This document shows, piece by piece, positions 1 through 38,286 of a stretch of DNA of 64,000 nt. Below the pieces are notes generated by a model. It saw only the letters and a list, made by a program, of their open reading frames with translations. It was not told the DNA's origin and did not search any database. The stretch lies in the IMG/VR virus record IMGVR_UViG_3300034418_011920, positions 1,669 to 65,668 of that record; one strand, written 5' to 3'. The DNA is from a virus (lineage: Duplodnaviria; Caudoviricetes). The position numbers and the translations under genes are program-made. Each line of letters opens with the position of its first letter. The stretch's first letter is position 1.

Positions 1-2
1 TA

Positions 3-887
3 GCTCCAGCATTAACGGTTGATAACCTAAAATTAGACGGAAACACATTAAGTACTACAAATACTAATGGTAGCTTGATTTTAGAACCTAACGGTAACGG
101 ACCAATACAGTTAACAAGCTATGGAAATTCAAGAGGAACTTATGCAGTAGATTTACAGCGATTTAAAACCAATGTTTCACAAGTCGCTACTGGTTTTTAT
201 GCTGCAATCTTAGGCGGGATGGGAGGTACAGCGACACACCTTGGCTCCGCTATAATAGGTGGAGCACTTAATCAAGCCACTGCTAATTATGCTACAGTTA
301 TAAACGGCGCTAGTAATCAAGCAGTTGCGGTAAATTCTACAATATTGGCTGGCAGCAACTGTTATGCTGGAGAACAAAGCAGTGTTGCAATGGGGTATGC
401 TAAAACAATAAGATGGGGTGAAATTGCCAGTGCTATTAGTGGTGGTAACAATACTGCTGGTGCGTCACAGCAAGGTACTGTAGTTTTAGGAGACTTAGTT
501 TCAGCTAACAGTACATTTGAGTTAACAGCAAATGGTGTCAATGCTCTAAATACTTCTAGCACTTTCACAAACTATTTTAAGATTCCAGATGCTACTCTAG
601 TAAATTTTGATGTACAAGTTAGTTTAATTAGTTCAACAAACAACGATTTGGGAGGATGGTATAATGCTAGGGGTGGTATTATTGTAAAAGGAAGTCCAGC
701 AGCAGCAGCACTAGTTGGCCCTCTTATCGAAGAGTATCATTACGACATTTCGGGAACTGAGGTAATTGTTGACGCAAATTCAAGTACTGATTATAGATTA
801 AGGGTACGAGTCACTGCTCCAACTTCCCATAGTATGTATGCATGTGCTACAATTAGATATACCCAAATGAGTGCCGGTACACCATAA
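3..887 (+). CDS. tail fibre-like protein, 5'-truncated by the window edge
   Basis: The frame is open from position 3 (APALTVDNLKLDGNTLSTTNTNGSLILEPNGNG, a motif typical of phage fibre proteins). It continues into G/A/N-rich beta-roll-like repeats (AAILGG..., SAIIGG..., ATVING...). Confidence 0.65.
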   Translation, partial: APALTVDNLKLDGNTLSTTNTNGSLILEPNGNGPIQLTSYGNSRGTYAVDLQRFKTNVSQVATGFYAAILGGMGGTATHLGSAIIGGALNQATANYATVINGASNQAVAVNSTILAGSNCYAGEQSSVAMGYAKTIRWGEIASAISGGNNTAGASQQGTVVLGDLVSANSTFELTANGVNALNTSSTFTNYFKIPDATLVNFDVQVSLISSTNNDLGGWYNARGGIIVKGSPAAAALVGPLIEEYHYDISGTEVIVDANSSTDYRLRVRVTAPTSHSMYACATIRYTQMSAGTP

Positions 888-901
888 TAAAAGGAGCGAT
901 A

Positions 902-1255
902 ATGAGTATTATTAGTAATATACAAAATGAATTACAGGGAAATCAAGTTGAAATTATCAGAGCTAAAACCAAAGCAGATACAATTAGAAACACAACAGTT
1001 GCAATTTATGAATCCATGAAAGAAGCCTTTAATCAAGGTTCTACAATGTTTTGGGCTAGTCAAGATGCTACTCCTGAAGATATTGCTGCCTATCTTGGCA
1101 CTAACGCGAGCGGCATATTTTATTTACATGCAAGACTAGGAGAAGTTTTAGCGTTGGTTGATCCATCTGGGATTGCAGAAGGATTAAGTGTTGTTGGTGA
1201 ATATACACAAAACGGAGACGGTTCAATAACGATCATTCAGCCTTCTGGAGAATAA
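902..1255 (+). CDS. hypothetical protein (fibre-associated, possible chaperone)
   Basis: 117-aa ORF with an AAGGAG RBS, lying between fibre-like genes. Confidence 0.55.
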   Translation: MSIISNIQNELQGNQVEIIRAKTKADTIRNTTVAIYESMKEAFNQGSTMFWASQDATPEDIAAYLGTNASGIFYLHARLGEVLALVDPSGIAEGLSVVGEYTQNGDGSITIIQPSGE

Positions 1256-1257
1256 TC

Positions 1258-1623
1258 ATGCCTATAGATTATAATAATAATCCTATACAAAGGTTTACAG
1301 AGGTAACAGAAACTGTTGCTATTAGTTCAGGCTCTTTGACATTAAATCTTAATAATGCTACAACTTTTTTAGTTAATAGAAATGCAAATATTACAAGTAT
1401 AACTATAAGCAATCCTAACTCGTCTGGCACTTCTCATAGTTTCAGTATTATTTTTACTCCTAATGGATCTTCATATACCGTTAGCTGGCCTGCTAGTGTA
1501 AAATGGGCTGGCGGTTCAGCTCCTAGCTTAACTACAACTTCGGGCAAAAAAGATATTTTACATTTTACAACCGTTGATGGAGGAACAAACTGGTATGGAT
1601 TTGTTGGAGGTTTAAACTTCTAA
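1258..1623 (+). CDS. virion fibre-associated beta-sandwich protein
   Basis: Contains WPASVKWAGGSAPSLTTTSGKKDILHFTTVDGGTNWYG, a module common at the C-terminus of phage fibre proteins. Confidence 0.65.
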   Translation: MPIDYNNNPIQRFTEVTETVAISSGSLTLNLNNATTFLVNRNANITSITISNPNSSGTSHSFSIIFTPNGSSYTVSWPASVKWAGGSAPSLTTTSGKKDILHFTTVDGGTNWYGFVGGLNF

Positions 1624-3678: not shown

Positions 3679-4305
3679 ATGAAATTTGAAATAGAAATAA
3701 AAGAAAACGAAAGACAAATCAGTAAGAAAATACTGAAAGCTTTGATTCCAGAAGTAGACAAATTCATGAAAAAAGCTGTTTCTGAAGTAAAAAAAGATCT
3801 GCCAATTATTTTAAGAAATGCTATTATGAGTAGCGAAACATATTATGCGTTAGTTGGCGGAAAGCTTAGGTTTGAGCTCGGTATACCAGACTCAATATCA
3901 AAATTAGATGCTCTAATAAGTATTTGGACTAATGATGTAAATGTCACATATGTAAAACCAACATTAATTGGGTCAGATAAAATATTTGCTTTTTTTAGCG
4001 TTGGTTTGGTACAATCTGATTATTCTGATGTATTAGGAACAAATTATGCGCAGGTCTATGATAAGAAGGGGTATTATTTACCTTGGTTACAATGGCTTTT
4101 ATTTGAAGGCACCAAACCTTTAATCTCTACACATAAAGTTGTTTTTACTCGTGGCGGTAGAACAGGTGGTGCAATCATGAGAAAGCCTGGCTCTTGGAGT
4201 ATTCCGATCGCATATGCTGGCACAGCAACAGACAATTGGATTACAAGAGCGATTGATGATTCAAGTCCGCAAATAGAAGACTTACTCAAAAGGATATTTA
4301 AATAA
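3679..4305 (+). CDS. putative tail completion/neck protein
   Basis: Synteny, plus WLQWLLFEG and a C-terminal NWITRAI segment resembling Ne1-type tail completion proteins. Confidence 0.4.
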   Translation: MKFEIEIKENERQISKKILKALIPEVDKFMKKAVSEVKKDLPIILRNAIMSSETYYALVGGKLRFELGIPDSISKLDALISIWTNDVNVTYVKPTLIGSDKIFAFFSVGLVQSDYSDVLGTNYAQVYDKKGYYLPWLQWLLFEGTKPLISTHKVVFTRGGRTGGAIMRKPGSWSIPIAYAGTATDNWITRAIDDSSPQIEDLLKRIFK

Positions 4306-7557: not shown

Positions 7558-7845
7558 ATGGATGAAGACCAAGAGAATATTCTAAGAAAAAGAATACAAA
7601 CAACCATGATTGGTGCATTACACGAATTCGAAAAAAACTTTGGATATTTATGGGGGCAAGATAAATCAGAAGACGAAGAACTTTCGGATAAAGAAGACAG
7701 GTTTTTAGACATTTGGGAAGAAACAAGAAATAGAATTCTGAATAATGGTAATAATCAATTGAGAAAAGCCATATCAGAAATAAATAAGATAAAAGGAAAA
7801 ACTAAATATAGTTACAAGTTTTACAGAAAGGGCGACAATGAGTAG
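7558..7845 (+). CDS. hypothetical protein
   Basis: 95-aa helical ORF tightly packed in the operon. Confidence 0.65.
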   Translation: MDEDQENILRKRIQTTMIGALHEFEKNFGYLWGQDKSEDEELSDKEDRFLDIWEETRNRILNNGNNQLRKAISEINKIKGKTKYSYKFYRKGDNE

Positions 7846-8719
7846 AAAATTTAAAGTCAAAGATGTGGAATTACAAGTAGTTTCTCCGTCAGCAGCGGAC
7901 AACAGAGAAGCGAATAAGGTTTACAATCAGGCCTTTAACGATGCTCTAAAGTCTAAAGCTATTGTCAGGGCAAGACTAGACGATATTCTAAAAGAACAAG
8001 GCTTATGGGACGACGCCAAGCAAGCGGAGTACAATACTCTACAAGCCAAATTACTAGAATCCGAAAGACAACTCAAAAAAGGTGGCATCACCCTAGCCAC
8101 AGCTAAGGAAATAGCTTTACAAATGAAGAGGGACAGAGAAACTCTTCGTGAACTTATTAGTGATAGAACCAGTCTCGATAACCATACGGCAGAAGGACAG
8201 GCGGATAATGCTAAGTTTAATTATTTGGTATATGCTTGTACTGCATATGGAGATAATCCATCTAAGAAATATTTTGCGTCTTATGATGATTATCAAAAGA
8301 GATCCTCAGAACTAGTAGCAATTATGGCCGCTCAACATGTTGCTAATTTTGTTTATGGTCTAGAAGATGATTATGAGTCTAAGCTTCCAGAGAATAAGTT
8401 TTTGAAGGACTATCGCTTTGTTGATGATTCGGGAAGACTTGTTAATAAAGAAGGAAAATATGTAGACACCGAAGGAAGACTTATTGATAAGAACGGAAGA
8501 TATATCGATGAAGAAGGTAATTTTATTGATAAGCAAGGGAATAGAGTTGACGAAGAAGGAGAATATATTGTTGAATTTACTCCATTCTTAGACGACGATG
8601 GTAAGCCTGTTACTCTTGCGTCTGACGAACCAGAAGAAGAGTCAGAAGTGGTTGAAGAAAAACCGAAGAAGGCTAGAAAAACTGCTAAAAAAGCGGTTGA
8701 AAAAGCGTCTGCGGAATAA
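7838..8719 (+). CDS. putative tail assembly chaperone with 7-residue DxxG repeats
   Basis: Directly upstream of the TMP. Shares GLWD and LDxxTxxG motifs with 6519..7556. Repeats at 8423-8570; acidic then Lys-rich tail. Confidence 0.55.
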   Translation: MSRKFKVKDVELQVVSPSAADNREANKVYNQAFNDALKSKAIVRARLDDILKEQGLWDDAKQAEYNTLQAKLLESERQLKKGGITLATAKEIALQMKRDRETLRELISDRTSLDNHTAEGQADNAKFNYLVYACTAYGDNPSKKYFASYDDYQKRSSELVAIMAAQHVANFVYGLEDDYESKLPENKFLKDYRFVDDSGRLVNKEGKYVDTEGRLIDKNGRYIDEEGNFIDKQGNRVDEEGEYIVEFTPFLDDDGKPVTLASDEPEEESEVVEEKPKKARKTAKKAVEKASAE

Positions 8720-8813: not shown

Positions 8814-11800
8814 ATGGCAACACCTTTTAACTTAACCGCTCAAATTAATCTTCGTGGACCAAACAATATTAAACCTATTGTTGGTCAGATTAAGAAGCAG
8901 CTTGGTTCTATTAATGCAGATGTCAATGTTAAATTGGCCAAGGGAGCTCCAAAATCTATAGCTAGTGTAACTAAAAATCTCAAGCTAATGAATGCGGAGT
9001 TCCAAAAGGCTAACGCTAATGCCAAGACTTTATCAGCCACAATATCAACTCTTGGTGCTAACTTTAGTTCTTTAGCTAGGTCATCTGTTCAGGTAGCTAG
9101 TGTTAATACAAAAGTAGCAAGTACTTTATCTGGAATGACATCTGCTGGTTTAGATTCATCAGATGCTATGAATAAACTTGGTAGAGAGGTTTTTAACACT
9201 GGTAAAAGGATTGCTATTCTCAGTACTCTTGTTACTCCATTGGTTAATGTTTTTAGAAATGCCACCTCATCTGCTGTTGAGTTTAATGACCAAATGAGAA
9301 GGCTACAACAAGTTGTTGGTGGAACAGGCGGAATTGTTACGAGTATTTCTAATGAGATCACAAGATTATCTACAACTTTAGGTGTCGCTAGCTCTGATTT
9401 GGCTCAGGTATCTGTTACTTTGGCTCAGGCAGGTTTTACCGCCTCCGAAACACAAAGGTCTCTTGAGGCTTTAGCAAAAACAAATCTTGCTCCTACATTT
9501 AAAAATATTCAACAAACCACAGAGGGTGCAATTGCTGCCCTTAGACAGTTTGAACTTAGTGCTGGCGATCTAGAATCGGCTCTTGGTTCTATAAATGCCG
9601 TAGCGGCTAAATTCGCTGTTGAATCATCAGATATTATTGCTGCTATCCAAAGAACTGGTGGTGTGTTTGCGTCTGCGAGTAAAGGCGTAAGTCAGGGAAC
9701 CGATGCTCTAAATGAATTCATCGCTGTATTTACAAGCGTTCGTGCTACTACTCGTGAGAGCGCCGAGACCATTGCTACTGGTTTAAGAACGATATTTACC
9801 AGAATTCAACGTGGTAGCACGATTAACTATCTTAAAGAGTTTGGTGTTGAGCTACAAAATGCTCAGGGGCAGTTCGTTGGTGCGTATGAGGCTATCAGGA
9901 GACTCTCAGAAGGATTAAAAGACTTAGATCCTAGAGATGTTAGATTTAGTAAGATTGTAGAAGAGCTTGGTGGATTCCGTCAGATTGGTAAAGTTATTCC
10001 GTTACTACAACAATTCACAACAGCACAACAAGCACTCAATATCGCCCAGAGTGGACAAGGCTCATTAACCAAAGACGCTATTGCCGCACAAAAATCTTAT
10101 GCTGTTCAGATTACAAGAGTAAGAGAAGAATTCAACGCTCTTATTCGTGATTTTAGTGAAAATACCGTATTTAAAAATATTGCCGGTGCTTTTCTTAGTA
10201 TAACTAAAAATGTAATTACTATAGGTAGAGCATTGGCCCCTATCGGCGCAGCTTTTGCTACAGCTTTCGCCATAACAAACTTCAAAGCTATCACTAACTT
10301 TTTTGATGGAATAGTTAAAAGTGTAACAGGATTATTTAATACAAAAGATAAGGGTGGAGTTCTTTCACAATTAGGAAGTTTAACCGGCGGCGGGAATATA
10401 ACCGTTACTGCCAAAAATGAAAAAGTAACTGCTGCTATTGCTGTAAATACTACAGCATTAAATGCAAATACAAAATCATTGGACAATCTAACTTCTGCTA
10501 TTAATGGCCTTAAAGCTGGAGGAACTACATTTAATAAGGGTGGTAGAGTACAGGCTTTCGCTTCTGGTGGTGTTGTTCCGGGTCAAGGAAACCGAGATAC
10601 TGTTCCGGCAATGCTGACTCCTGGCGAATTTGTGATTCGTAAGAAAGCTGTTGAAACTATTGGGGCTGGTAATTTACAGAAGATGAATAAATATAGTTGG
10701 GGTGGAAAAGTTAAAACATTGGCGAGTGAATATACAAGCATACAAGATATTGATAACTATGAACAATTTGAAGATGATATTGTTAGGGATAGATCAAAAT
10801 TTATTAGAGTAAAACCAACAGATGAAGATAAAGAAACATTTAAAAACATTAAAGCTTTCAGTAACGCTAGTAGATTTGAGAAATTTGTTGGGGAAAAATA
10901 TAGTTTAGGGAATCCAGCAAAAGGACGGTTTGATTATTTAGATTTTCCTGATAGTAGATCAGAAGCAAAATTTTTGCCTCTAGGCGAGACATATAGCAAT
11001 TCCGAAAAAGGAAACACCCCTAAATCCATAGCTGCTAAAAATTTCCTATTTGAAAACAGCGCCTATAGACCCAATAGAAAAAATAAATCAGTTAAACAAA
11101 TAGAGACTGTTAGCTTAACAGGGCCAGTAGACACATATTGGGCAAATCCTAAAGATTTTTATAATCTTGGTGGATATATTAAAAAATACGGCATTGGTGG
11201 AGGAATATTAGCAACCGATACTGTTGGTGCCGCTATTATGGAAGAAGCAGGAAATCTTACTCCTACCATAATCTCAGGCGGTGAAATTATTAGCAGTACT
11301 CTTAAAGATAGAAAGTTGAAAGAAGACGAACTTTCTAACATGGAAAAAAGATTGCAGGCTATTTTTGGTAATAGAAGCTATAATTTAGTTAGACAAGGAT
11401 TAGATGGAGCTTTAGGAGCTAATGTCGGCGGCGCTATTAATAACAGAATAATAGAGATGATGAATAATCTTGGAGCAGATTTAGATTTCCCTGGCATAGC
11501 AGCAGGAGCCGGCGATAACTTCTTAAGCACATTAAATGATAGTGTTAAGGGTGGTATTTTTGAATCCGTGCTAAATACTATTAAAAACAGCGGGATATAT
11601 CAAGTCGCTCAAAGCTCTTCTGAGAAAAATGACTATTTTGATTTTAGAGACGGATTAGGGGAAGCTTCTAAATGGTTTCCAAGTTTGAAGGATATAGCTT
11701 TTGTAGACGCTAAAAAATCCTTAGATGCTGCTCGTCCTGGTTCCATTGCTAGAAAAATAGGCAACGAAGCATTAAGAGAAGCTGGTTCGATGAGTTTGGA

Positions 11801-14800
11801 ACAATTGTCTAAGATGGCAGAGGAGATACAATCGACATCAGGTATTCAGGATGTATTACTTAATGCTATAACACAAGATTTTGGTTCTGGTGCTTATAGT
11901 AGAGGAATGATATTACCACTTATTGGCGAAGGAAAAGAATCAGAAAACCTTTCTGTTGCTGAAAAACTAAAAGCAATTTATGAAAGATTAGGACTATCCC
12001 CACAGAAAGGTAACAGTGTTCTTCGAAAACTTTTTGGCACAGCAACTGGGAAAAAATGGGAAGGAAAAGCCGTATCGCTAGCTAATAGATTAAACTTTGG
12101 AGGATTTGTTCAAAAATTCGCAGAAGGAGGAGAGCCGGATCCAAATGCTCCTAGTGCTAAACAATTAGGTTTTATCAAAAGCCTTGTTGGAAAATTCTAT
12201 TCTGATGAAGCTCAAATAGAACAATTTATGTCTACCGTTTATGATAAACAAACTGCTAGCAAACAAATACAACAATTACAAAATGCTAAAAAATGGACTG
12301 GATTATTTAAAGCTTTATTAGCAGAAGGCAAAAGTGTAGGTTTCTTGGGAGGAAGACCTTTTGCTTATTATAGTAGAATATCTACTGCTAGTTCTTCTTT
12401 TGATGAGCTTAAAGATGAAGAAACAATTAGAGCATTCTTAGAAAGAGGAAAACTTGCTTTTGGTAGCTATACAAACAATACCAATACATTTGCACAAAGA
12501 AGATACAACAGATCAAAAGGCTATCGTCGTGCTCTTGGCGGGTTCATACAAAAATTCGCAGAAGGAGGAGAACCTAAGAAAGAAAAAGATTTTGGTCAAA
12601 TACTTCTTAGCGGTTCGCCTGAGAGAATAGAAGCTAGATATAACCCAAATGATACGAGAACAGGATCTGTTAACGCTAAAAAATGGAAAGATGGCATATG
12701 GACTGTTGGTTTGTCAATGGCTAGTAAAGGATATGGACCTAGACTATATGATACTGTAATGGAAGCTGTTACGGAAAAGGGAGGCATGCTAACATCAGAC
12801 AGAGCTACCGTTAGCGGTGCTGCTAGATCTGTTTGGGACTACTACTTTAGGAATAGATCAGATGTATCTAAGACTCCTCTACCTAGAGATGCTTGGACTG
12901 GCAACTACGAAATGATTGACGAAAAACTTAGAGGACCAGAAGATACTTGGCCTCCTAAAAACGATCCTGCCTGGGCATTACAAACAGGATATAGAAAATC
13001 TCCATCTTTAATTAATGACCCAAACTCTGTTAAGAGAATTAAGTCAAGTCAATCATCTGCTAAAACTGCTTTAGATTATTTTGCTGCTCGCAGCCTATTT
13101 GCAGATGGCGGGTTAATACAAAAATTTGCTGAAGGAGGATCAGCAGAAGACACTGTTCCTGCACTATTAACTCCAGGCGAATTTGTTATCAATAAGAAAG
13201 CTGCTTCCAGAATAGGTTCTGCAAATCTCAATAAGATGAACAAAGCCGATAAAATTTCTGGATTTAACAAGGGCGGTCCAGTTGGCATGGTTCAGAGATT
13301 TGCTGCTGGCGGCGGTGTTCAGGATGTGCTGGCTCAACAATCGGGAATGTCTACTTCTAAGTTTATGAAAGAACTGGGCAAAGAGCTAGACTCAGTAGCA
13401 TTAGACATTATAAAATCACTCCAACAAACAAAGAAATCTTTTGTAGTAAGTATTGGTAAAGCAACAAACGCTTTTGCTGCCGGATTAGACCCAGCAGAAG
13501 TAGAAGCCTCACTGCAAGAAGCTGTAGCAGGATTAGCGGAAGCTGGCGGAATTTCTGACACTGGAGTAATTCAAAAAGCTGCTAGTGATCTTTTCGCTGG
13601 AATACAAGCTGGATTACCATTAGATCAAATTCAAGCAAAAAGTGCAGAGCTTACACAAATTACTGCTCGACAAATTACAACAACTGATGCTCTCGACAGA
13701 GCAATGCAAAGACTATCATTAGAGACAGGTATAGCTGCTGACGAATTAAATAAAATTAAAGATACACAAAGACTCGAAGCTAAACAATTCTTCGAGGGCG
13801 ATATTGGTAAACAATTTGATGGTGTTATCACCAGAACATTCCCCAAGACATTTAAGGGTCTTCTAGATAATAGTTTTGGTAAATTAACAGCCAACATAAC
13901 CAAAGCTTTTCCTGCAACAGCTATTACTGGCAGTTTGGTTTCTCTTAAAGGAAGCTTAGATTATTTTGGTAGTGATATTCAAAAGCTTGGTGTAGATTTA
14001 GGCCTTTTACCAGAAGATGTTAAAAATTCATTATCTACATTAGGTGGTGTGCTTGGTGGAGCTGGTCAAGGAGCAGCTATAGGCCAGGCTTTAGGAGGAT
14101 TATTGGGTCCTGCTGGGGCTTTAGGAGGAGCTATTGTAGGCGCAGTAGCTGGCGGCATTAAAGGATATTTTGATGCTCAATCTAGAATAGAACAAGAAAG
14201 AATAAGAAAAGAAAGTGTAAAATCACAAAAACGATTTGAAGATAATTTAGCTAGAGCACAAAATGAACCCTTAGCAGAGGATAGGCAGGAAGCTCTAGAA
14301 AGAGCTATGAGTGAATTATCAGCTAGAAATAGAGAACTAGCAGAACAGATGGGTAAACTCGGAGGAGGTACAGTTTACGGTGGTGATCAAATAAGACTAC
14401 CAAGAACTGAAGAGGCAGCCACTGGTTTATCTGATAGAATCAAAAAGTTTGGCGAGAATATGCAAAGGCTTGGAGAAATGAGACTTCAAACCGAATCAGC
14501 AGATTCTCTTAATGAAAGACAAGACAAAATAGACGAAGTATTAGATTCTGCCACTACTAAAACTCAGCATTTATTTGAAGTGTTTGGACAGACAGCAGAA
14601 GCCCAAGCAGCATTGGCAACTCTAGGGGCAAACGCAACAGAAGAGCAAAAAGCAGCACTCTTAGAAAATTTAGCACTATCGAGATATCTAGCAGAACAGG
14701 AGTCATTAGGAGTTAGTGCTAGAGATGCATTAGCAACATGGAACGCTAATATAGCAGACAACCTTAATGCTACTCTAAGATCTACACTAATAGAAAAACA

Positions 14801-17800
14801 AGCAGCAATTGCTACACAAAGAGCAGCTTTGGCCCAAGAAAATTATAACAAACAATTAGAGTCTTTCACATTCAAAATGGATGCTGTCAGCCAAGCTCTT
14901 AATATCTTCAATAATGAAATGGAGTTTTCATTAGCTAGGCTAGATAATCTAAACGCTGGTCTTGCGGGAGAAGGTCCACAAGGAATTACTCTGCGTAATA
15001 GAACAAGAGATATTATTGAAAATCCTTTAGCCTTTAGTGTTGAAGAATTCCAACAGGCGGCAGAGAGAGTTGCAGGACAAGGAGAAGCTGGACAAGAAAT
15101 ATCCAATCTAGCAACAGCTTCTAGAATAATTAACCAAGTCCTAAGACCTGCATTATCTAATACTGAAGATAGAGATGTTAGTGGAGTCAGAGAAGCTGTT
15201 CAAGCTCAGATTGACGAACTTTTCCCCGGTCAAGGTCCTGGGGCTGGTGTTCCAGCAGATTTACAACAAGCGATAGACGAAGTATTAGATCAATCTATTA
15301 GGGGCATTACCGAACAAGCAACACAGAGACAAGGAGAAGGTCAAGATTTTGCGAATATAACCGATAGTGTTGATCAGTTTTCTCGAGGAGCAGCAATTGC
15401 AGAAGAAACGCTTAAACAATTATCGGAACAGAGAGAGAAAGAATTTCAACTATTTTTAGATCTAGAAGAAAGAAGAGCAGATGCTATTCTTAAACAAGTT
15501 AATATTACACAGCAATTAGTAAAGACACAAGCAGATTTCAATCAGCAGCTTAGAGATGCAATTGGAGAATTTTCTTCACTAGAAGAAATGAATGCTGGAT
15601 TTAATGCTCAGATACAACAATTAACCGGAGGAGAAACAGATCCAACCGCAATATCTGACAATATTATTGATTTGGAAAGACAACAAAGAGAAGCTAGTGA
15701 TAGAATCAATCAATTGATGAGAGACCCTACTAATGGAGAGCCAGATAACAGACGAGCGCAAGAAGACCTAGCAAGAGAAATTATAAACCTACAAGTTGAA
15801 CAAAAGAAATATATACAAGCTCTTGAATTAATTGCAAATAGCAACGAGAAAGTTTCTAATGCTTTCAAGAAGCTTGCAGACGAACAAAAGAAGGCCGAAA
15901 CAGGGAAAGATTTATTGTCTATCCTGTCTAGCGGTAGTTTAGAAGACATTCTCAAATTGAGGACAGACATAGTTGGTGTGCAGCAAGCTCTAGCTGGAAA
16001 TACAGGTTTCTTTGCTGCTAATCCTTTGGCTTCACAATTAAATCCACAAATCCTCGATCTGCTACAGCTATCTCAGGAAGAAAGAAGGAGAGCGGAAGGA
16101 GTTGCAATTCAAGGCGGTATTGGGGGAAGGTTTGGAGGCGCTGCTGCTGGTATGGCTGGTCAGTTCTTTGCTATGATGGAAACTGGGATTAATAATGCCA
16201 CTCAACAAGTACAAGCAGCTAGTGCAGAACAATTAAGAGCCCTCATAGAGCTTAGAAGAATTGCAGAACTTCAAGAAAATAATGTTATTAAACAGCAAGA
16301 AAATATTGACATTCTTTTGAGAGGATTAAACGATGAATTGGGTGGAGGAGACGCTAATGAAGCACAAGAGAAATTTATTAAAGCTTTAGAAGACTTGGGT
16401 ATTAATCTTCCAAAAGATATCACAAATAGAGTTTTAGAAGGATTAAGCTTAGTAAAAATGGGAATTCAGGGAATTCTTCTTGGTGACGATCTCAGGAATG
16501 GTTATCTTGGAATCGTTGAAAATGCATATGCAAATATTACAGAAAAATTAAATGCCATAGCTGATAGAATGAACGAGGCTGCTCCACGAGCGAATCAACC
16601 ACCCAATGCGGATAGTCCACCACTTGGAAATCCAGGAAACCAAGCAGGTGGTGGTCGTGGTGGTCGTGGTGATGATTGGTTGCCAGATTGGTTACCAGAT
16701 TGGTGGCCTGTATTTGATTTTCGTTCTCGTGGTGGTCCGATCTATGCCAAGAATGGTATGGCTGTTGGGCCATTTAAACCAAGAGGAAAAGATACTGTTC
16801 CGGCTATGAGCACAAATGGTCAACCATATATGCTTCAGCCAGGAGAGTTTATTGTTAATAAAGAAGCATATCAGAAGAATAAGGGGCTTGTTGAAGCTAT
16901 CAACGGAGGAATGAATGTAGGTGGGTTTGGCGGTACTATGTATGCTGCTGCTGGTGGAATAGTACAAATGGGCGGTATTCAAGTTCCACAATGGTACTTG
17001 GATGCTAATGCTGCAATGAGACAACAAGCACAAGCTGTTGCTGCATATAACCAAAACTATGCGATGAGTGGACAATACAGAAGGGATGCTATTGCTAATT
17101 TAGGACAAGGAACAAATGTAGATTATGCTCAAAGAAATAGCATGGCTATGGCGGATAATATGCAAAGAACAGCAGAAGGCGCAAATACCATCGCTGAAGC
17201 TGCTACTAGCGATGGGGCTCAGTCTGGAGCTCAAACAGGCGGAATGTTTGGCGATATCTTTGGTAGAATGCTTGGAGGAAAAAATCCTGCCGCACAAATA
17301 GGCGGTCAAATTGGTGGAGCTATGATTGGCGGCATAATGGGAGCTTTCGACAATCTTGCTGGTGGGGCTTTATCAAGTATTGGACAAAGAGTTGGGTCTG
17401 TGTTTGCTGGTCAAACAGCCGAACAACCTGCGACACCAACACCACAACCAGCCCAAGCGACTCCGTTACCACAACCTACTCCGGATGTTCAAGCAGCTCC
17501 GATAGACTTGGGTGCTGTGCCTTCTGGTCCTGGTGGTGGTGCTATGTCTATTCCTCCAGAACCAACAAGAAGACCAAGAGTGATAGATGGAAGTAGGCCA
17601 ACACCAGAAACTCAACCAATACCAGCGCCTCCTCCACCACAACCAGTACCAGAAGTAAGCGCAGATAGACCACGAGCTAATCAAGCTCCATTAGCGGAAG
17701 AACAACCCGTACCAGCACCAACAGCTCCGGGTCAAAATGGATTTTCTGGTTTGGGTAGCGACACAGCAAGAGACGCGGCTATAAGAGCAGCAAAAGCAGC

Positions 17801-20800
17801 AGGAAGACCTCTAACAGGAGAAGAAGCCGCTTATTATGAGCAAAGAGAAGCCCAAAGAAACGAAGCTGATCCAGAAAGAGCACAAAGAGGAGCATACGCA
17901 AGAAGAAGAGCAGCAGATCGTGCAACTTATGAGGGCCAGCCTAAAGATAGAGTAAATCCAGACACACCACCTTCTGGTAGAGGTCAAGGCGTTTGGGATG
18001 CTTATACTCGTTATGTGACTTCTGCCGGTGAAACCAATTTTGTTCAACCAAATGAAGAAGGTTCCCAAACTGCACCATTATTTGATAGACAGGGCTATGA
18101 GGCATACTTAGCTTCTCGCTATGGTACTCAAGGTACTCTTGGTGGGGCTTCTGCTCATCCTCGATACGAAGAGGACATGGCAACATTTGATTATTATAGA
18201 CAACAAAGAGAAAATGAGATAGCGGCAGATAAAAAACCCGGAAAATTATTTTCGTCAGATATGACTGTTCCGGAAAAAATAAAAGCTACAGACGCAGCCG
18301 GAGCACGCGAAGCGTTAAAGATACAAGAAGCCAGAAGAGAAGCTTCTGAAAAATCACTGTTCGGAGATGCTATACAAACAGATCCTCAATTAACACGAGC
18401 AGAGAATATCGCTCAAGCTAATACTGCTATTCAAGATCTACAAAATAGAGCTCCAATATCCGACAATTTAGATGATAATGAAATTAATAAGAGAAAATAT
18501 ACTGCTGGACAAGCTAGGGGATATATTTTAGACGCAAAGGATAATACTGGACAATTTGAACTTAAAGATGCAAAATTTAATGGTTTTGATGAAGATGGAA
18601 ATATTTTATTAGAGAAACCTTCTGAATATAGAGATATTGATGGTAAGAATACTCCAGTATATACCGGAGATATTAAACCCGTTAATCCAGACAAATTAGA
18701 CTCTTTGACTCTTGATAGAATAAACAGAGCACAACAAAAGGCTAATGACGAATATGAAAAAAATGTTACTCTTCCAGCGCAAGAGGAAAAGGATAGAGCA
18801 ATAGAGAGAGCTCGGCAGCGTGAGGATTTTAACCGCAGAGCAGAAGCGAGACGCACCCAAAAACAAAAAGAAAAGGAAGAGGCTGCAACAGCACAAGCAT
18901 CAATAGATACAGAATATGATCGCACAGAAAGACAATTAACAGATTTGGCTAATACAGAAAGAGCTAATGCCCAAAGAAATGAAAAACAAAGAGACGATCA
19001 GCTTCTTTATAGATTGGGTACTGGGACTCTTGGTGGTTCTGAGGATACTTTAAGACAAGCATCGCAAGCATCCGAAGAAAAAGTAGCTAAAGCTGAAGCA
19101 GCACTAGCTAGTTTAAATCAATCAAGAAAAACTAGAGAAAGATTAAAACAAAAAGGTTTGATTTTTACTGGTGCTTCTGATACTGAATTTGATTTAACAG
19201 GAACTGGTGTTGAACCTTATACCGATATTGGTACGGGAGATAAGCCAGTTCAGGTATACAGATCAGCTGATGGTCAGATATATTCAAGTAAAAAAGAGGC
19301 TTTAGAAGGTTTAGGATATGTTAGTAAAAGAGGATACTTAACAGAGGAAGGTAAAAAGTTCTATACCAACAGATCTATTGATCAACAAGTTACTGCGAAT
19401 AACACATACAAAGATCTTTTGGGCATAGATCCTAATACTGGATTCTTACAAGAAGGACAGATAGCAGAAATTCAAAGACAAAACGAAGGATTTATGTCTG
19501 GCGTAGAAGCTGGGGCTGGTGTTGTTGAAACTGGTGTTGAAACTCTTGCAGCCGTAGCTACACTTGGAGGAAGTGCTGCTGTTACCACAGTAGGAAGAAG
19601 TGCATTAAGTGCTGGTGTTAGAGGAGCAGCAAGAACCGGATTATTTGCTGCTGGAGAAACAGCTGCAATTTCTAGTGTTTTAGAAGGCGAAAAAGTTAAT
19701 GCTGGAAGACAGACAGTAGGAGATGCAATAGGTAATGTTGGAACTAAAGCAGCTTTTGCGGGATTAACAGGTGGTGTTGGAGGTGGTATTGGAGGTGTCG
19801 CAGCTAGGGGGGCAGCTAGAAAAGCAAGACTAGACAAGTTACTTGATGAACGCAAAACTACTCAAGGTGTTATAGATAGAATTACAAGATCAGGAACTAC
19901 TTTTGAAAATACAAAATTTGTTAACAAAGATTTTAATGTATTTAGCCCAAGACAAGCCAATAATATCAGTCAGAAAGCTACCAAAAGGGCCGCAGAAAAA
20001 TCTGGAGATATAAATGAGATTATTGATTTGCGAAATAATCCAAGGGCTGCGTTTGAACTTTACGATGGTGCTACTGGAGAAATTCCAGATATTAAAATAA
20101 AAAAATTCAAAGAAGCATCCGATATTGCTTCGACAAGACAATCCAGAAAATCCGCTTCTCAATTTGATGCTCAAGGAGGAAAAGCTTTTGCGACTCCAGA
20201 TGAAACAGCATCGGCTGCTGCTTTAAAACCTAGCAAAGCCACCCAAACAAAAATCAAGCAACTTGAAGCGAACAGGACTCAGGCTGAAGATTTAAGACGA
20301 ACATTTAAGGTCGATAGCAATCCTAAATCTGCTGCTGCGACTAAGCCTAAGCCAGCTACTGCGACTAAGCCTAAACCAGCTGTTGCGTCAGCTGATCAGA
20401 AAACTGCTACGCAGATATTATCAGAAGAGTATACAGCTCCGATTTCAAATAGACAGAGAAGAGCAGAAGCGTTTCCTGGAGTTGCTGCTCCTCCGCCTAA
20501 GCCAACTGTCGCTACGCCTACGCCTAAGCCAACTGTCGCTACGCCTACGCCTAAGCCAACTGTTGCTGCGCCTAAACCTAAGCCAACTGTTGCTACGCCT
20601 AAACCTAAGCCAACTGTTGCTACGCCTGAACCTATAGATCCTAAAAAAGAATTTTCAACATTTATGGATGAATGGAATAAAGAACGTAAAATCGGCACAC
20701 CATTTTTAAATGAAAAATTTGATAGTTGGAAATACAAACCTTTAGCTCAAACATACGATGAACTTATCGAGAATATGGGTGGTGCGAAAGGATTAAGCTC

Positions 20801-21872
20801 AAGCAAAATAGAACAATTAAAAGAACTAGCAAATGCTGATTCATCAGTTATAGAAACTGCAGATGTGGCATTTAGATCATGGAATCCTACTATTAGAGAA
20901 GCGAGAAATGCACCGAGTGGTTTCTGGGATTGGTCTAGAGGAAACGATCCTAAGAGTTTGTCAAGAATAATTCAAGATCCTGATTTGAAAGATTATGGAA
21001 ATTTACGCAGCAAGTATAACTTTATTAAAGAATATAACGAACGTATAGGAAGAAATCAAAACAAGAGTGGGTTAATCCAAGGGACAGCAACACCAACTCC
21101 GACTCCAAAGCCTCAAACAGCTGCTGTGTCACAAACTCCAGCAATGCCTATCCGTCCACCGAAACCAAATATTCAAAACGATCCTATAGGATATCAAGAC
21201 TATATGGTTGGGCCATACAAAGGCACTCCTTTGGAGGCTGAAGCTAGACAATTATTTAAGAAACAAACCGAAGCATACAATAGACTTAATGCTAGTACAA
21301 CGAGAGACCAAGCAAGAAAACAAGTAAATGAACAACTTAAAGCATTGCGTCAATTAGGACAAGAACAAGGTATTCCGGGGTTAAGTCAAGGAGGACCAAT
21401 TTATGCAAGCAAAGGAATGTTTGTTCCAAAAGGACCAGATACTATCCCAGCGATGCTTGCTCCAAATGAATTTGTAGTAAACGGTCAGTCAGCAATAAAT
21501 AATTTGGATCTCCTAAAGCAAATCAATGCTTCTAGAGGTCCACTCTATATGAATCAAGGTGGTATCGTAAGTGGTAGTAGTCCAGCACAAGCAGAAAATT
21601 ATTACGGCACTCTTGGCGGAAATAACCAAACCAATCAAATGGGTAATAACTTTGCTGGTTATGTTGAGCAACTTCAAAACTTCCAATTCCCCACTATTCC
21701 AGAAAGAATCGAAATGGTTGGAAGTCATACTGTTGATGTTAATGTTAATGGTGCTGGTGCATTTGAATCACTACAAGGCGGTATCATGAATATGATTAAT
21801 AGTGAAATTGGTAAGACAATGGATGGCTTGTGGAATCAATCAAATGGCGCCGTAGGAAGAGCAAGTAGATAG
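8814..21872 (+). CDS. giant multidomain tape measure protein (4352 aa)
   Basis: N-terminal TP901-type TMP core (LGVASSDLAQVSVTLAQAGF, AETIATGLRTIFTRI), long helical regions and glycine-zipper hydrophobic segments. Four DT(V/I)PA..(P)(G/N)EF(V/I) motifs. Located after the tail tube and chaperones. Confidence 0.9.
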   Translation: MATPFNLTAQINLRGPNNIKPIVGQIKKQLGSINADVNVKLAKGAPKSIASVTKNLKLMNAEFQKANANAKTLSATISTLGANFSSLARSSVQVASVNTKVASTLSGMTSAGLDSSDAMNKLGREVFNTGKRIAILSTLVTPLVNVFRNATSSAVEFNDQMRRLQQVVGGTGGIVTSISNEITRLSTTLGVASSDLAQVSVTLAQAGFTASETQRSLEALAKTNLAPTFKNIQQTTEGAIAALRQFELSAGDLESALGSINAVAAKFAVESSDIIAAIQRTGGVFASASKGVSQGTDALNEFIAVFTSVRATTRESAETIATGLRTIFTRIQRGSTINYLKEFGVELQNAQGQFVGAYEAIRRLSEGLKDLDPRDVRFSKIVEELGGFRQIGKVIPLLQQFTTAQQALNIAQSGQGSLTKDAIAAQKSYAVQITRVREEFNALIRDFSENTVFKNIAGAFLSITKNVITIGRALAPIGAAFATAFAITNFKAITNFFDGIVKSVTGLFNTKDKGGVLSQLGSLTGGGNITVTAKNEKVTAAIAVNTTALNANTKSLDNLTSAINGLKAGGTTFNKGGRVQAFASGGVVPGQGNRDTVPAMLTPGEFVIRKKAVETIGAGNLQKMNKYSWGGKVKTLASEYTSIQDIDNYEQFEDDIVRDRSKFIRVKPTDEDKETFKNIKAFSNASRFEKFVGEKYSLGNPAKGRFDYLDFPDSRSEAKFLPLGETYSNSEKGNTPKSIAAKNFLFENSAYRPNRKNKSVKQIETVSLTGPVDTYWANPKDFYNLGGYIKKYGIGGGILATDTVGAAIMEEAGNLTPTIISGGEIISSTLKDRKLKEDELSNMEKRLQAIFGNRSYNLVRQGLDGALGANVGGAINNRIIEMMNNLGADLDFPGIAAGAGDNFLSTLNDSVKGGIFESVLNTIKNSGIYQVAQSSSEKNDYFDFRDGLGEASKWFPSLKDIAFVDAKKSLDAARPGSIARKIGNEALREAGSMSLEQLSKMAEEIQSTSGIQDVLLNAITQDFGSGAYSRGMILPLIGEGKESENLSVAEKLKAIYERLGLSPQKGNSVLRKLFGTATGKKWEGKAVSLANRLNFGGFVQKFAEGGEPDPNAPSAKQLGFIKSLVGKFYSDEAQIEQFMSTVYDKQTASKQIQQLQNAKKWTGLFKALLAEGKSVGFLGGRPFAYYSRISTASSSFDELKDEETIRAFLERGKLAFGSYTNNTNTFAQRRYNRSKGYRRALGGFIQKFAEGGEPKKEKDFGQILLSGSPERIEARYNPNDTRTGSVNAKKWKDGIWTVGLSMASKGYGPRLYDTVMEAVTEKGGMLTSDRATVSGAARSVWDYYFRNRSDVSKTPLPRDAWTGNYEMIDEKLRGPEDTWPPKNDPAWALQTGYRKSPSLINDPNSVKRIKSSQSSAKTALDYFAARSLFADGGLIQKFAEGGSAEDTVPALLTPGEFVINKKAASRIGSANLNKMNKADKISGFNKGGPVGMVQRFAAGGGVQDVLAQQSGMSTSKFMKELGKELDSVALDIIKSLQQTKKSFVVSIGKATNAFAAGLDPAEVEASLQEAVAGLAEAGGISDTGVIQKAASDLFAGIQAGLPLDQIQAKSAELTQITARQITTTDALDRAMQRLSLETGIAADELNKIKDTQRLEAKQFFEGDIGKQFDGVITRTFPKTFKGLLDNSFGKLTANITKAFPATAITGSLVSLKGSLDYFGSDIQKLGVDLGLLPEDVKNSLSTLGGVLGGAGQGAAIGQALGGLLGPAGALGGAIVGAVAGGIKGYFDAQSRIEQERIRKESVKSQKRFEDNLARAQNEPLAEDRQEALERAMSELSARNRELAEQMGKLGGGTVYGGDQIRLPRTEEAATGLSDRIKKFGENMQRLGEMRLQTESADSLNERQDKIDEVLDSATTKTQHLFEVFGQTAEAQAALATLGANATEEQKAALLENLALSRYLAEQESLGVSARDALATWNANIADNLNATLRSTLIEKQAAIATQRAALAQENYNKQLESFTFKMDAVSQALNIFNNEMEFSLARLDNLNAGLAGEGPQGITLRNRTRDIIENPLAFSVEEFQQAAERVAGQGEAGQEISNLATASRIINQVLRPALSNTEDRDVSGVREAVQAQIDELFPGQGPGAGVPADLQQAIDEVLDQSIRGITEQATQRQGEGQDFANITDSVDQFSRGAAIAEETLKQLSEQREKEFQLFLDLEERRADAILKQVNITQQLVKTQADFNQQLRDAIGEFSSLEEMNAGFNAQIQQLTGGETDPTAISDNIIDLERQQREASDRINQLMRDPTNGEPDNRRAQEDLAREIINLQVEQKKYIQALELIANSNEKVSNAFKKLADEQKKAETGKDLLSILSSGSLEDILKLRTDIVGVQQALAGNTGFFAANPLASQLNPQILDLLQLSQEERRRAEGVAIQGGIGGRFGGAAAGMAGQFFAMMETGINNATQQVQAASAEQLRALIELRRIAELQENNVIKQQENIDILLRGLNDELGGGDANEAQEKFIKALEDLGINLPKDITNRVLEGLSLVKMGIQGILLGDDLRNGYLGIVENAYANITEKLNAIADRMNEAAPRANQPPNADSPPLGNPGNQAGGGRGGRGDDWLPDWLPDWWPVFDFRSRGGPIYAKNGMAVGPFKPRGKDTVPAMSTNGQPYMLQPGEFIVNKEAYQKNKGLVEAINGGMNVGGFGGTMYAAAGGIVQMGGIQVPQWYLDANAAMRQQAQAVAAYNQNYAMSGQYRRDAIANLGQGTNVDYAQRNSMAMADNMQRTAEGANTIAEAATSDGAQSGAQTGGMFGDIFGRMLGGKNPAAQIGGQIGGAMIGGIMGAFDNLAGGALSSIGQRVGSVFAGQTAEQPATPTPQPAQATPLPQPTPDVQAAPIDLGAVPSGPGGGAMSIPPEPTRRPRVIDGSRPTPETQPIPAPPPPQPVPEVSADRPRANQAPLAEEQPVPAPTAPGQNGFSGLGSDTARDAAIRAAKAAGRPLTGEEAAYYEQREAQRNEADPERAQRGAYARRRAADRATYEGQPKDRVNPDTPPSGRGQGVWDAYTRYVTSAGETNFVQPNEEGSQTAPLFDRQGYEAYLASRYGTQGTLGGASAHPRYEEDMATFDYYRQQRENEIAADKKPGKLFSSDMTVPEKIKATDAAGAREALKIQEARREASEKSLFGDAIQTDPQLTRAENIAQANTAIQDLQNRAPISDNLDDNEINKRKYTAGQARGYILDAKDNTGQFELKDAKFNGFDEDGNILLEKPSEYRDIDGKNTPVYTGDIKPVNPDKLDSLTLDRINRAQQKANDEYEKNVTLPAQEEKDRAIERARQREDFNRRAEARRTQKQKEKEEAATAQASIDTEYDRTERQLTDLANTERANAQRNEKQRDDQLLYRLGTGTLGGSEDTLRQASQASEEKVAKAEAALASLNQSRKTRERLKQKGLIFTGASDTEFDLTGTGVEPYTDIGTGDKPVQVYRSADGQIYSSKKEALEGLGYVSKRGYLTEEGKKFYTNRSIDQQVTANNTYKDLLGIDPNTGFLQEGQIAEIQRQNEGFMSGVEAGAGVVETGVETLAAVATLGGSAAVTTVGRSALSAGVRGAARTGLFAAGETAAISSVLEGEKVNAGRQTVGDAIGNVGTKAAFAGLTGGVGGGIGGVAARGAARKARLDKLLDERKTTQGVIDRITRSGTTFENTKFVNKDFNVFSPRQANNISQKATKRAAEKSGDINEIIDLRNNPRAAFELYDGATGEIPDIKIKKFKEASDIASTRQSRKSASQFDAQGGKAFATPDETASAAALKPSKATQTKIKQLEANRTQAEDLRRTFKVDSNPKSAAATKPKPATATKPKPAVASADQKTATQILSEEYTAPISNRQRRAEAFPGVAAPPPKPTVATPTPKPTVATPTPKPTVAAPKPKPTVATPKPKPTVATPEPIDPKKEFSTFMDEWNKERKIGTPFLNEKFDSWKYKPLAQTYDELIENMGGAKGLSSSKIEQLKELANADSSVIETADVAFRSWNPTIREARNAPSGFWDWSRGNDPKSLSRIIQDPDLKDYGNLRSKYNFIKEYNERIGRNQNKSGLIQGTATPTPTPKPQTAAVSQTPAMPIRPPKPNIQNDPIGYQDYMVGPYKGTPLEAEARQLFKKQTEAYNRLNASTTRDQARKQVNEQLKALRQLGQEQGIPGLSQGGPIYASKGMFVPKGPDTIPAMLAPNEFVVNGQSAINNLDLLKQINASRGPLYMNQGGIVSGSSPAQAENYYGTLGGNNQTNQMGNNFAGYVEQLQNFQFPTIPERIEMVGSHTVDVNVNGAGAFESLQGGIMNMINSEIGKTMDGLWNQSNGAVGRASR
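12099..13139 (+). repeat. three dispersed direct repeats encoding GG(F/L)(V/I)QKFAEGG
   Basis: CAAAAATTCGCAGAAGGAGGAGA is identical at 12111-12133 and 12549-12571. Positions 12537-12569 and 13107-13139 match at 30 of 33 nt. Confidence 0.9.
20331..20378 (+). repeat. 24-nt tandem repeat x2 (A(A/T)ATKPKP)
   Basis: gctgctgcgactaagcctaagcca followed by gctactgcgactaagcctaaacca. Confidence 0.8.
20496..20630 (+). repeat. 27-nt tandem repeat x5 encoding PKPTVA(T/A)P(T/K/E)
   Basis: cctaagccaactgt(c/t)gct(a/g)cgcct-nnn repeated five times in frame within the TMP. Confidence 0.95.
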
Positions 21873-37544: not shown

Positions 37545-37964
37545 ATGTTTTGTGAATATAAAAAGATGCACAAAGAATGGATATGCAAAAGATGCGGAAG
37601 AAGAACAGAGTTTGGTGGAGCTATAAAAGAAGATAGTATGCCCATAGCCAAGTGTAGAATCCCTGATGATTATTTTATGACACAGAATTGTGGCTATATT
37701 GGAGCTTTTAAATTAAAAGGGGTTGGAGACATACTACTGGATTTATTTAAAAACTTAGGATACACAATAAACCCCATATCACCAGAAAGAACATTCGCTA
37801 CATATCTAAATAAGCGTGGAATAGATTGGTGCAGTAGAAACAGGGATGGTGTTGTAGAATGGCTGAAGGCAGAAAGTAATCGCAGAGGATTAACAATTCT
37901 GCCCTCAACACTAAAAGCTATAGTAAGATTATCTATCTTAAAAGCTAGACAACAAGAAGTTTAG
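37545..37964 (+). CDS. hypothetical Cys-containing protein
   Basis: AAGGAG RBS; CKRC and GVGD motifs; last plus-strand gene. Confidence 0.7.
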   Translation: MFCEYKKMHKEWICKRCGRRTEFGGAIKEDSMPIAKCRIPDDYFMTQNCGYIGAFKLKGVGDILLDLFKNLGYTINPISPERTFATYLNKRGIDWCSRNRDGVVEWLKAESNRRGLTILPSTLKAIVRLSILKARQQEV

Positions 37965-38284: not shown

Positions 38285-38286
38285 TT

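Follow-up and report, generated by a model that had tools for sequence, protein, structure and literature searches.

A giant tape measure protein of an aquatic phage with an exchangeable array of enzyme-like cassettes between conserved modules

Why would a phage tape measure protein (TMP) carry, between two copies of one conserved module, a row of segments that resemble enzymes and are each set off by the same short glycine motif? The question is raised by the window, a stretch of 64 kb out of a 65.7-kb IMG/VR virus record judged to be about 47% complete, in which a single uninterrupted open reading frame (ORF) of 4352 amino acids (aa) was called on the plus strand. Four segments, here termed cassettes S1 to S4, lie in the N-terminal third of its product between modules M1 and M2 (Table 1). 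The answer that we consider best supported, with a probability of about 0.6, is that this is a polyvalent TMP, in which an array of cassettes is swapped at the linkers and would deliver probable enzymes into the host.

The identity of the protein is apparent from its N-terminal core. Pfam family PF10145 (PhageMin_Tail) matches aa 180-385 with 81.9 bits against a cut-off of 33.2, nine TMP families of the PHROGs collection match over aa 50-568 (best phrog_28, E-value (E) 9e-25), and the core shares 40-59% identity with most of the giant relatives described below. Judged by these matches, the ORF encodes the tail TMP of an uncultured aquatic siphovirus-type phage. Among GenBank phages no nucleotide match to the region was found, and the protein-level match was confined to the conserved module, in TMPs of Gordonia phages; since GenBank phages share only this one short module with the region, the phage represents a very poorly charted group.

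An assembly artefact, that is, a chimera created by an assembler collapsing the repeats, would explain such an array most simply, and contigs from public runs do often break at conserved cores and linkers: in four runs, contig ends cluster at 10594-10596, 11213, 12583, 13102, 13135 and 13148-13149, and three listed ends fall inside cassettes (10948, 11645, 12870), positions being taken from 24 of 83 loose ends. The explanation is nevertheless barely credible. The stretch is present in 20 of the 22 listed public runs, which stem from 11 studies and are labelled as freshwater, oyster and seawater metagenomes. Single contigs bridge M1, S1, linker 2 and S2 (10677-11260), S2, linker 3 and S3 (11617-12466), and S4, linker 5 and M2 (12675-13457), an independent protein of 3510 aa, 99% identical, has S2, S3, S4 and M2 in the same order, and the reading frame stays open over 13 kb.

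Linkers as cassette boundaries and sites of exchange

All six GG junctions and both flanking DTVPA(M/L)LTPGEFVI modules listed in a preliminary description of the window were found where it had placed them. The strict pattern GG-x4-[FY]-x2-GG occurs five times in the TMP, compared with a mean of 0.02 in 2000 residue shuffles (maximum one, none with five or more). All five strict copies lie within aa 576-1442 and the motif as a whole is limited to aa 576-1500; GG dipeptides are found throughout the protein. The DNA copies of the linkers share just 63-85% identity with one another, indicating conservation at the peptide level and not recent DNA duplication, and M1 and M2 form a direct repeat of 97 nucleotides (nt) with 72% identity. 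In both AlphaFold models (A and B, described below) the linkers are predicted to be disordered, with a predicted local distance difference test score (pLDDT) below 50.

The type-1 module follows a fixed layout: GG-x4-FA-x-GG, a spacer of 3-8 residues, DTVPAMLTPGEFVI-x-K-x-A-x3-IG-x3-L-x2-MN, and a terminal GG further on. By sequence comparison the linker is the head, or N-terminal half, of this conserved TMP module. Ordinary TMPs have the module once or twice in their C-terminal part, and it matches many TMP PHROGs near their C-terminal ends. The two module copies reported in the preliminary description stood, and the count rose to four with the addition of two more divergent ones, here called type 2, both of which begin GGPIYA(K/S)(N/K)GM and which have the cores DTVPAMS...LQPGEF and DTIPAMLAPNEF. 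No cassettes adjoin the type-2 copies in the window, and the related giants L009, L011, L015 and L017 also have the type-2 module in the distal part of their TMPs. A complex prediction with three copies of M2 scored 0.01, a value that says nothing either way on self-association.

Table 1 Features of the tape measure gene, in window coordinates. Ellipses mark residues not written out.
Feature	Position (nt)	Strand	Residues (aa)	Motif or make-up	Basis or remark
Giant TMP ORF	8814..21872	+			PF10145 and TMP PHROGs
N-terminal TMP core	8814..10517	+	1-568		Pfam, PHROGs, relatives
Linker 1	10539-10571	+	576	GGRVQAFASGG, FNKGGRVQAFASGG	Motif position
Module M1 (type 1)	10539..10706	+		Linker 1, DTVPAMLTPGEFVI core 10596-10637 (aa 595), helix ending ...KMNKYSWGG	
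Cassette S1	10707..11168	+	632-785	E689, D710, E717-x-K719	Alpha/beta domain; candidate PD-(D/E)xK nuclease
Linker 2	11169..11201	+	786	GGYIKKYGIGG, YNLGGYIKKYGIGG	pLDDT <50, model residues 154-164
Cassette S2	11202..12098	+	797-1095	E917, D943, D965-x-K967	Second nuclease-like cassette
Linker 3	12099..12131	+	1096	GGFVQKFAEGG, LNFGGFVQKFAEGG	Motif position, DNA repeat
Cassette S3	12132..12536	+	1107-1241		Helical, rare (two relatives found); model B
Linker 4	12537..12569	+	1242	GGFIQKFAEGG, RALGGFIQKFAEGG	Left end of natural 570-nt deletion
Cassette S4	12570..13106	+	1253-1431		Predicted GNAT-fold domain; most widespread cassette
Linker 5	13107-13139	+	1432	GGLIQKFAEGG, FADGGLIQKFAEGG	Head of M2
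Module M2 (type 1)	13107..13313	+		Linker 5, DTVPALLTPGEFVI core 13149-13190 (aa 1446), helix, linker 6	
Linker 6	13272-13313	+	1487	Longer variant, FNKGGPVGMVQRFAAGG, GGPVGMVQRFAAGG	End of M2
Module M3 (type 2)	16731..16988	+	2640-2725	Begins GGPIYAKNG, split core; core at aa 2660 (16791)	
Further type-2 module	21390..21593	+	4193-4260	Core at aa 4209 (21438)	Near C-terminus

If the linkers delimit exchangeable units, cassette number and identity should vary among related TMPs at the GG motifs, as the preliminary description had anticipated; alignment of related TMPs placed the variation there, in the two relatives P0002 and L004, in a natural contig and in a survey of 65 giant TMPs. P0002 shares about 27% identity with the window TMP in S2 and 96% from linker 3 through S3 to linker 4, after which it enters M2 directly (about 92% identity), at the point where the window has S4 and one further linker; its similarity is abruptly lost beyond the RFAxGG at the end of M2. 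In L004, the identity of about 50% in the TMP core rises to about 90% at the FASGG of the first linker and beyond it. Moreover, a 27,445-nt contig (depth 55) from a seawater-labelled run, X18, which comes from a phage of about 95% identity, aligns to 11223-12535 (69 differences) and to 13106-13500 (11 differences), and skips exactly 570 nt, or 190 codons, corresponding to S4 plus one linker, with 21 letters that fit both sides of the joint. The indel is in frame and is the same as in P0002. Because the contig skips exactly S4 and a linker between the repeats, what distinguishes a close natural relative is exactly a single cassette, and the break falls within the linker repeat. The linker is thus both the boundary of the cassettes and the site at which lineages gain, lose and exchange them by recombination.

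Two further joints were seen in the runs. At 10516-10590, in the first linker region, runs X1 and X18 replace the 73 nt before the first DTVPAML core by 79 letters. An apparently cassette-free variant in X18 (joint from 10644 to 13152, skip of 2507 nt, shorter side of 43 letters, depth 7) was rejected as unreliable, since the length skipped does not divide by three and the cores of the two modules are 72% identical; it may be the single module of another phage.

The extent of this exchange was assessed with an exhaustive, profile-free homologue search using TMP aa 632-1431 as the query. It returned 851 proteins at E<=0.001, the strongest of which are 2000-7100 aa long and share a common ground plan: TMP core, type-1 module, variable region, second type-1 module, long helical regions and type-2 modules. 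PF10145 was found in all five giant relatives scanned, and nothing else from Pfam. The variable region consists of S1 alone (P0063, P0065, P0077), of an S2-like cassette alone (P0095, P0102), of an S2-like cassette with S3 (P0002) or of S1 with an S2-like cassette (P0005, P0006); S4 follows directly after the first module in P0043 and P0048, and is preceded by 700-1900 aa of other material in others, e.g. P0007, P0016 and P0037. A search of viral contigs with P0106 gave no confirmed relative.

For the survey, the 65 giants with the N-terminal core were cut at linkers and module cores, yielding 302 segments in 144 families, 74 of which have a median length of at most 400 aa, 28 of these being recurrent. 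Each of the four segments of the window belongs to a different sequence family (F3, F6, F22 and F0), and cassette orders are combinatorial: F3-F6-F22-F0 in the window, and elsewhere F25-F2-F12-F0, F7-F2-F12-F0, F13-F2-F0 and F14-F8-F89-...-F0. Homologous segments are tight in length (S4-type 151-288 aa in 38 proteins, S1-type 133-166 aa in 10). The linker consensus from 212 occurrences is GG-x-[VI]-Q-K-F-A-x-GG (V or I in 194, Q in 94, K in 97, F in 144, A in 110), and in 33 of 59 giants [FY][AS]xGG stands no more than 35 aa upstream of S4, and in 39 of 59 no more than 45 aa downstream of it, compared with 6.9% of random windows. Furthermore, four complete IMG/VR ORFs, L007 (4135 aa), L011 (2259 aa), L012 (2310 aa) and L017 (3783 aa), have other cargo between their two modules, again separated by GG(L/I)IQKFAEGG, and none of this cargo matches anything known to Pfam.

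Two observations on relatives are added here. L018 (6511-6849) has three tandem QKFA(E/G)GG copies before the DTVPAML core and no cassette between them, resembling an 'empty' array. The last cassette in the cargo region of L007 (7142-10324) begins ...GGAVKLYHGTTTGTNDSILKSF and continues ...GQGAGLFLYT, and recurs downstream of S4 in P0015 and P0053; it may resemble the H-Y-E type of ADP-ribosyltransferase motif, and Pfam found nothing in it.

Predicted folds and conservation of the cassettes

S1 and S2 were modelled together with the linker between them (model A; alignment of 23 rows, mean pLDDT 78.7). S1 reached a pLDDT of about 88, and S2 forms an alpha/beta core at about aa 796-1006 with pLDDT above 90, followed by a helical tail of low confidence. 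An E...D...(D/E)-x-K pattern is the defining motif of the PD-(D/E)xK superfamily, and the residues that would compose it are kept among relatives: E689, D710, E717 and K719 of S1 in 12 of 12 aligned rows; E917, D943 and K967 of S2 in 14 of 14, and D965 in 13 of 14. Foldseek comparison of model A with PDB and BFVD gave nothing at E<=0.001, and the structural match list for S1 is dominated by nucleases of the restriction-endonuclease fold. Word-index homologue searches returned no short relatives of S1 or S2. With moderate confidence, from sequence conservation and modelling, S1 and S2 are predicted to be restriction-endonuclease-type, nuclease-like domains.

Immediately following the linker, S2 and its relatives open with (G)IL-x2-DT(V/I)GAA(I/V)(L/M) (11202-11260, aa 797-816), a stretch like the DTVPAML core, which model A predicts with confidence to be a beta-strand (E172-180) within the S2 domain. 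This modelled DTVGAA strand hints that the module core may work by strand addition.

Model B covered a linker, S3, a linker, S4 and M2 (alignment of 50 rows, mean pLDDT 70.1). S4 exceeded a pLDDT of 90, S3 was helical at about 40-77, and M2 was of low confidence. The best Foldseek matches of S4 were GCN5 (E 0.011, probability 0.98) and AAC(6') (probability 1.0), none of them at E<=0.001. Its signature, GxGP..YD...E ... DR..VS..A..VW..Y...R.DV, is nearly invariant in 50 aligned sequences, which include stand-alone proteins of 115-260 aa. The acyl-CoA pyrophosphate-binding loop of GNAT enzymes reads Q/R-x-x-G-x-G/A; in S4 the G-x-G-P is nearly invariant (G211, G213 and P214 of alignment A2), and the leading Q/R is not kept in the window copy (A-S-K-G-Y-G-P). 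Pfam GNAT families gave no match for the window S4 and none at E<=1 for 20 short listed homologues (16 of them S4 homologues). By its modelled structure S4 is a GNAT-fold, acyltransferase-like domain. S3 matched, among the relatives, only P0001 (the window's own sequence), P0002 and P0086, and ESM Atlas features for S2 and S3 gave nothing meaningful (scores <=0.85).

Of the earlier suggestion that the segments are four unrelated globular units, the lack of relationship among all four holds, and globularity is predicted with confidence for S1, S2 and S4 and not for the helical S3. The accompanying guess at restriction endonuclease and GNAT domains agrees with the alignments and structure comparisons, as far as the motifs of S1 and S2 and the fold of S4 go. 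Taken from conservation and predicted fold, S1, S2 and S4 are most likely active enzymes.

It might be argued that the cassettes are structural filler, i.e. inert domains or degenerate enzyme relics that add bulk or length, or plug the lumen or neck. The cassettes lack matches to sequence families, TMP length sets tail length, and the relatives vary from 2000 to 7100 aa. We regard this as improbable, because the residues predicted to be catalytic in S1, S2 and S4 vary little or not at all among relatives only 25-45% identical, stand-alone homologues of S4 keep the same conserved residues, and so high a turnover of cassette types is what one sees in conflict genes and not in a ruler.

A slightly smaller probability still is given to selfish homing, by which nuclease-like cassettes would cut the cassette-free linker DNA of co-infecting relatives, the duplicated linker being an insertion footprint and the infection drawing no benefit. 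Judged from motifs, nuclease-like domains are indeed the commonest cargo beside the first module (the window, L007, L009, L011, L012 and L017), and the S4 indel has exact borders, the joint sharing 21 nt. However, the most widespread and most mobile cassette, and the one actually seen present and absent, is S4, which has a GNAT fold and is not a nuclease; many other cassette families have no nuclease motif, the linker DNA is so poorly conserved between copies that it would make a poor homing site, and no intein or Hint-type family was found with Pfam.

Stand-alone, GNAT-like homologues of S4 (L027-L034) occur on genome contigs and have a conserved N-terminal leader, ...LLxE...P.DLP.... The labels of their metagenome-assembled genomes are Peribacter, WOR-3, Poseidoniales, Methylococcaceae, Alphaproteobacteria, Acidimicrobiaceae and Bdellovibrionota. 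The S4-like gene of L028 lies directly next to an ORF that contains part of a lambda-J-like central fibre (phrog_31, E 6e-11), so that this copy, at least, sits in a phage-like tail region.

Proposed delivery and possible processing of the array

In the mechanism that we propose for the polyvalent TMP, an ordinary core is followed by a module composed of an FAxGG-type glycine motif, a DTVPAMLTPGEFV core and a helix, and the four cassettes stand between two such modules, each preceded by the module head GG-x-(I/V)-Q-K-F-A-x-GG. The array may have arisen by insertion of cassettes after the FAxGG head, which would have been duplicated each time; module copies may have recombined unequally and the internal cores then been lost, and two relatives, P0061 and P0078, have whole modules between cassettes. 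TMPs fill the tail tube, are expelled at infection and form a trans-envelope conduit (PMC12617516, PMC13033339). By analogy, the cassettes would be part of the virion, located inside the tube lumen or close to it, and would leave ahead of the DNA, reaching the host at the first moment of infection as effectors of early take-over or counter-defence. The nuclease-like domains could then act on host DNA or RNA or on defence nucleic acids, and the acyltransferase-like domain on a host protein or small molecule; such a role in host conflict is suggested by the combination of conserved catalytic motifs with high cassette turnover. The linkers would either remain as flexible tethers or be cut after tail assembly, freeing the cassettes in the lumen.

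The relation of the module to TMPs of model phages bears on which of the two fates applies. A module profile built from 28 copies was searched against TMPs in solved structures and matched gp16 of mycobacteriophage Douge (E 5e-9, two stretches), lambda gpH at 728-789 (E 7.7e-5) and the JBD30 TMP (E 0.024); the match to T1 was not significant (E 0.22), and T5 pb2 gave none at E<=1 in this PDB search. The module keeps an invariant Asp, Glu and Asn. It lies outside the modelled parts of both structures, Douge gp16 being modelled at 1658-1699 only (PMC13033339) and gpH being resolved at 818-842 only (PMC10721106). Lambda gpH is cut after tail assembly, with a loss of about 14 kDa from a glycine-rich C-terminal region, site and catalyst being left unspecified in that account (PMC12617516). 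The glycine-rich stretch of gpH spans aa 691-750 and contains FATGG at 733-737; a cut at 710-738 would release 14.6-12.1 kDa. In T5, tail morphogenesis includes a cut in pb2 after R1127, which separates the ruler or membrane part from an enzymatic domain; the piece so freed stays in the tail to be expelled at infection (PMC10038345).

Since the linker peptide is much more conserved than a spacer needs to be, and is homologous to gpH near its processed part, we give cleavage at some or all linkers a probability a little short of even odds; the predicted disorder of the linkers and the cut in T5 pb2 also speak for it. A further-reaching proposal, which we hold to be unlikely, is that the motif and its DTVPAML partner constitute the long-unmapped maturation site of siphovirus TMPs, the event being the same as that which converts gpH to gpH* and gpHC. 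Multiplied in the present phage, it would yield a tail-lumen polyprotein that is cut after assembly into a ruler and free, exchangeable effectors, stacked in the tube and fired ahead of the DNA, and the invariant Asp, Glu and Asn of the module might make the cut autocatalytic. The preliminary description had compared the doublets with Gly-Gly sites cut by cysteine proteases in African swine fever virus and adenovirus; nothing in the data ties the motif to a protease of that kind, and the comparison was abandoned, as was an analogy to bacteriocin-type Gly-Gly proteases, which is likewise without support in the data.

The alternative fate is that the array stays tethered and unprocessed, the linkers being flexible hinges, or docking pegs for the tube wall, a chaperone or other TMP chains, and incidentally good recombination points, with the cassettes acting in cis at the envelope channel formed by the TMP. 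To this we attach much the same weight as to cleavage, again just under one half. The predicted disorder of the linkers agrees with it, as do the uninterrupted ORF and the occurrence of the motif once, or in tandem without a cassette, in other TMPs (three in a row in L018). However, a plain hinge would not be expected to keep GG-x-[IV]-Q-K-F-A-x-GG across proteins whose cores are 40-50% identical and whose linker DNA copies are 63-85% identical. Moreover, both TMPs examined for processing, those of lambda and T5, are cut (PMC12617516, PMC10038345).

Several points weigh against a polyvalent, delivered and possibly processed array, the first being that cleavage, injection and enzymatic activity of the cassettes are inferred from sequence, structural models and analogy. 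The approximately 14 kDa lost from gpH can be accounted for by a cut at about aa 710-720, some 15-25 residues N-terminal to FATGG, no less well than by one at the motif; because the size estimate also fits this upstream cut, the motif adjoins the cleaved region of gpH and is not demonstrably its site. In a record that lacks about half of the genome and in which most ORFs match nothing, no protease was recognised in the 11 neighbouring ORFs tested with Pfam and PHROGs, a result that also agrees with tethering. The lumen of a tail tube is about 4 nm wide, too narrow for three folded copies of a domain of 150-300 aa, one from each TMP chain, to sit side by side, and single-file stacking or partial unfolding would be needed, which flexible or cut linkers would permit. 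Lying in the N-terminal third of the protein, the cassettes would be the last to leave the tail. The strict motif is absent upstream of S4 in 26 of the 59 giants and downstream in 20, and around S2 it is present at just two of seven upstream and three of seven downstream boundaries. Finally, S1 to S4 match no sequence family in Pfam, PHROGs, NCBIfam or PDB (best PDB match E 0.2), the cargo of five further giant TMPs and of five related-locus cargo regions is also without a family match, and models A and B rest on shallow alignments of 23 and 50 rows.

Relation to known systems and genomic context

Elements of the proposed arrangement have precedents: a single enzyme embedded in a TMP is known from T5 and from TMPs with hydrolase motifs, and head-packaged polyvalent proteins have been described. 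One of the closest counterparts is T5 pb2 (pb2* and pb2C), like the window protein a TMP with an embedded enzymatic domain. It differs in having one C-terminal cargo, a muralytic metallopeptidase that acts on the cell wall, whereas the window TMP has four cargos in its N-terminal third, swappable with the repeated linker and with predicted nucleic acid or protein targets. Lambda gpH resembles the window TMP in that its match to the module includes the FAxGG head, and differs in having one module copy and no cassettes. Peptidoglycan hydrolase motifs in the TMPs of several phages likewise provide a precedent for folded enzymatic segments inside a TMP; these are, however, cell-wall enzymes, usually one or two in each protein and not known to be exchangeable, and no cassette of the window resembles a muramidase or peptidase. 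The anti-CRISPR GNAT AcrVA5 shares only the fold with S4 and scores no better than dozens of unrelated GNATs; it is a free early protein and is not known as a virion component.

Polyvalent proteins are very large and combine several unrelated conflict-type domains, including GNATs and nucleases; they are presumed to accompany the DNA into the recipient cell, and for some of them proteolytic processing is described (Iyer, Burroughs, Anand, de Souza, Aravind 2017; PMC5512222). The window TMP is like them in combining two predicted nuclease-like domains and one predicted GNAT fold in one protein of 4352 aa. In contrast, polyvalent proteins are packaged in the head or transferred by type IV secretion systems, and the main text of that paper, in which the words 'tape measure' and 'linker' occur zero times each, describes no repeated boundary motif (PMC5512222). 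Hallmark domains of polyvalent proteins (MPTase, ART, DarA-N, LPD, helicases, methylases) gave no Pfam match in the window TMP, five giants and five cargo regions. Among titles and openings of abstracts in the open-access literature, we found no description of a multi-cassette, linker-delimited, exchangeable array in a TMP.

If the polyvalent reading is correct, the tail lumen and the TMP would join head internal proteins and polyvalent proteins as routes by which effectors are pre-loaded for the first seconds of infection. The 74 short families in 65 relatives, at least 28 of them recurrent, would then represent a large reservoir of candidate early effectors invisible to Pfam, for which the repeated linker offers a sequence handle in mining metagenomes. 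The linker would also offer a naturally tolerated place at which cargo could be engineered into phage tails, and homology to gpH 728-789 makes the old question of where and by what gpH is cut testable in a model phage.

The TMP gene is co-oriented with plus-strand ORFs spanning 3-37964, those downstream including very large products of 619, 643, 1579 and 2371 aa. PHROGs and Pfam gave no match above threshold for any of the 11 neighbouring ORFs that were tested. The ORF directly 5' of the TMP gene (7838-8719, 293 aa) has short repeats of the form (D/E)xxG(R/K/N)(L/Y/F)(V/I)(D/N)(K/E/T)(E/N/Q)G and matched DUF3659 below threshold (E 4e-4; 20.6 bits, cut-off 24.8); its position suggests a candidate tail assembly chaperone. 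On the 3' side, the ORFs at 25679-30418 (1579 aa, without a PHROG match) and 30420-37535 (2371 aa) presumably encode tail tip or fibre proteins. Within the TMP itself, aa 1759-1782 form the sole strongly hydrophobic, glycine-rich stretch of at least 22 residues, and about five tandem copies of a repeat rich in proline and threonine, (T/K)PKPTVA(T/A)P, lie at 20484-20633 (aa 3891-3940). Finally, at about 37900-38300 the orientation of the genes flips from plus to minus and the GC skew changes sign, where the structural block meets the minus-strand genes.

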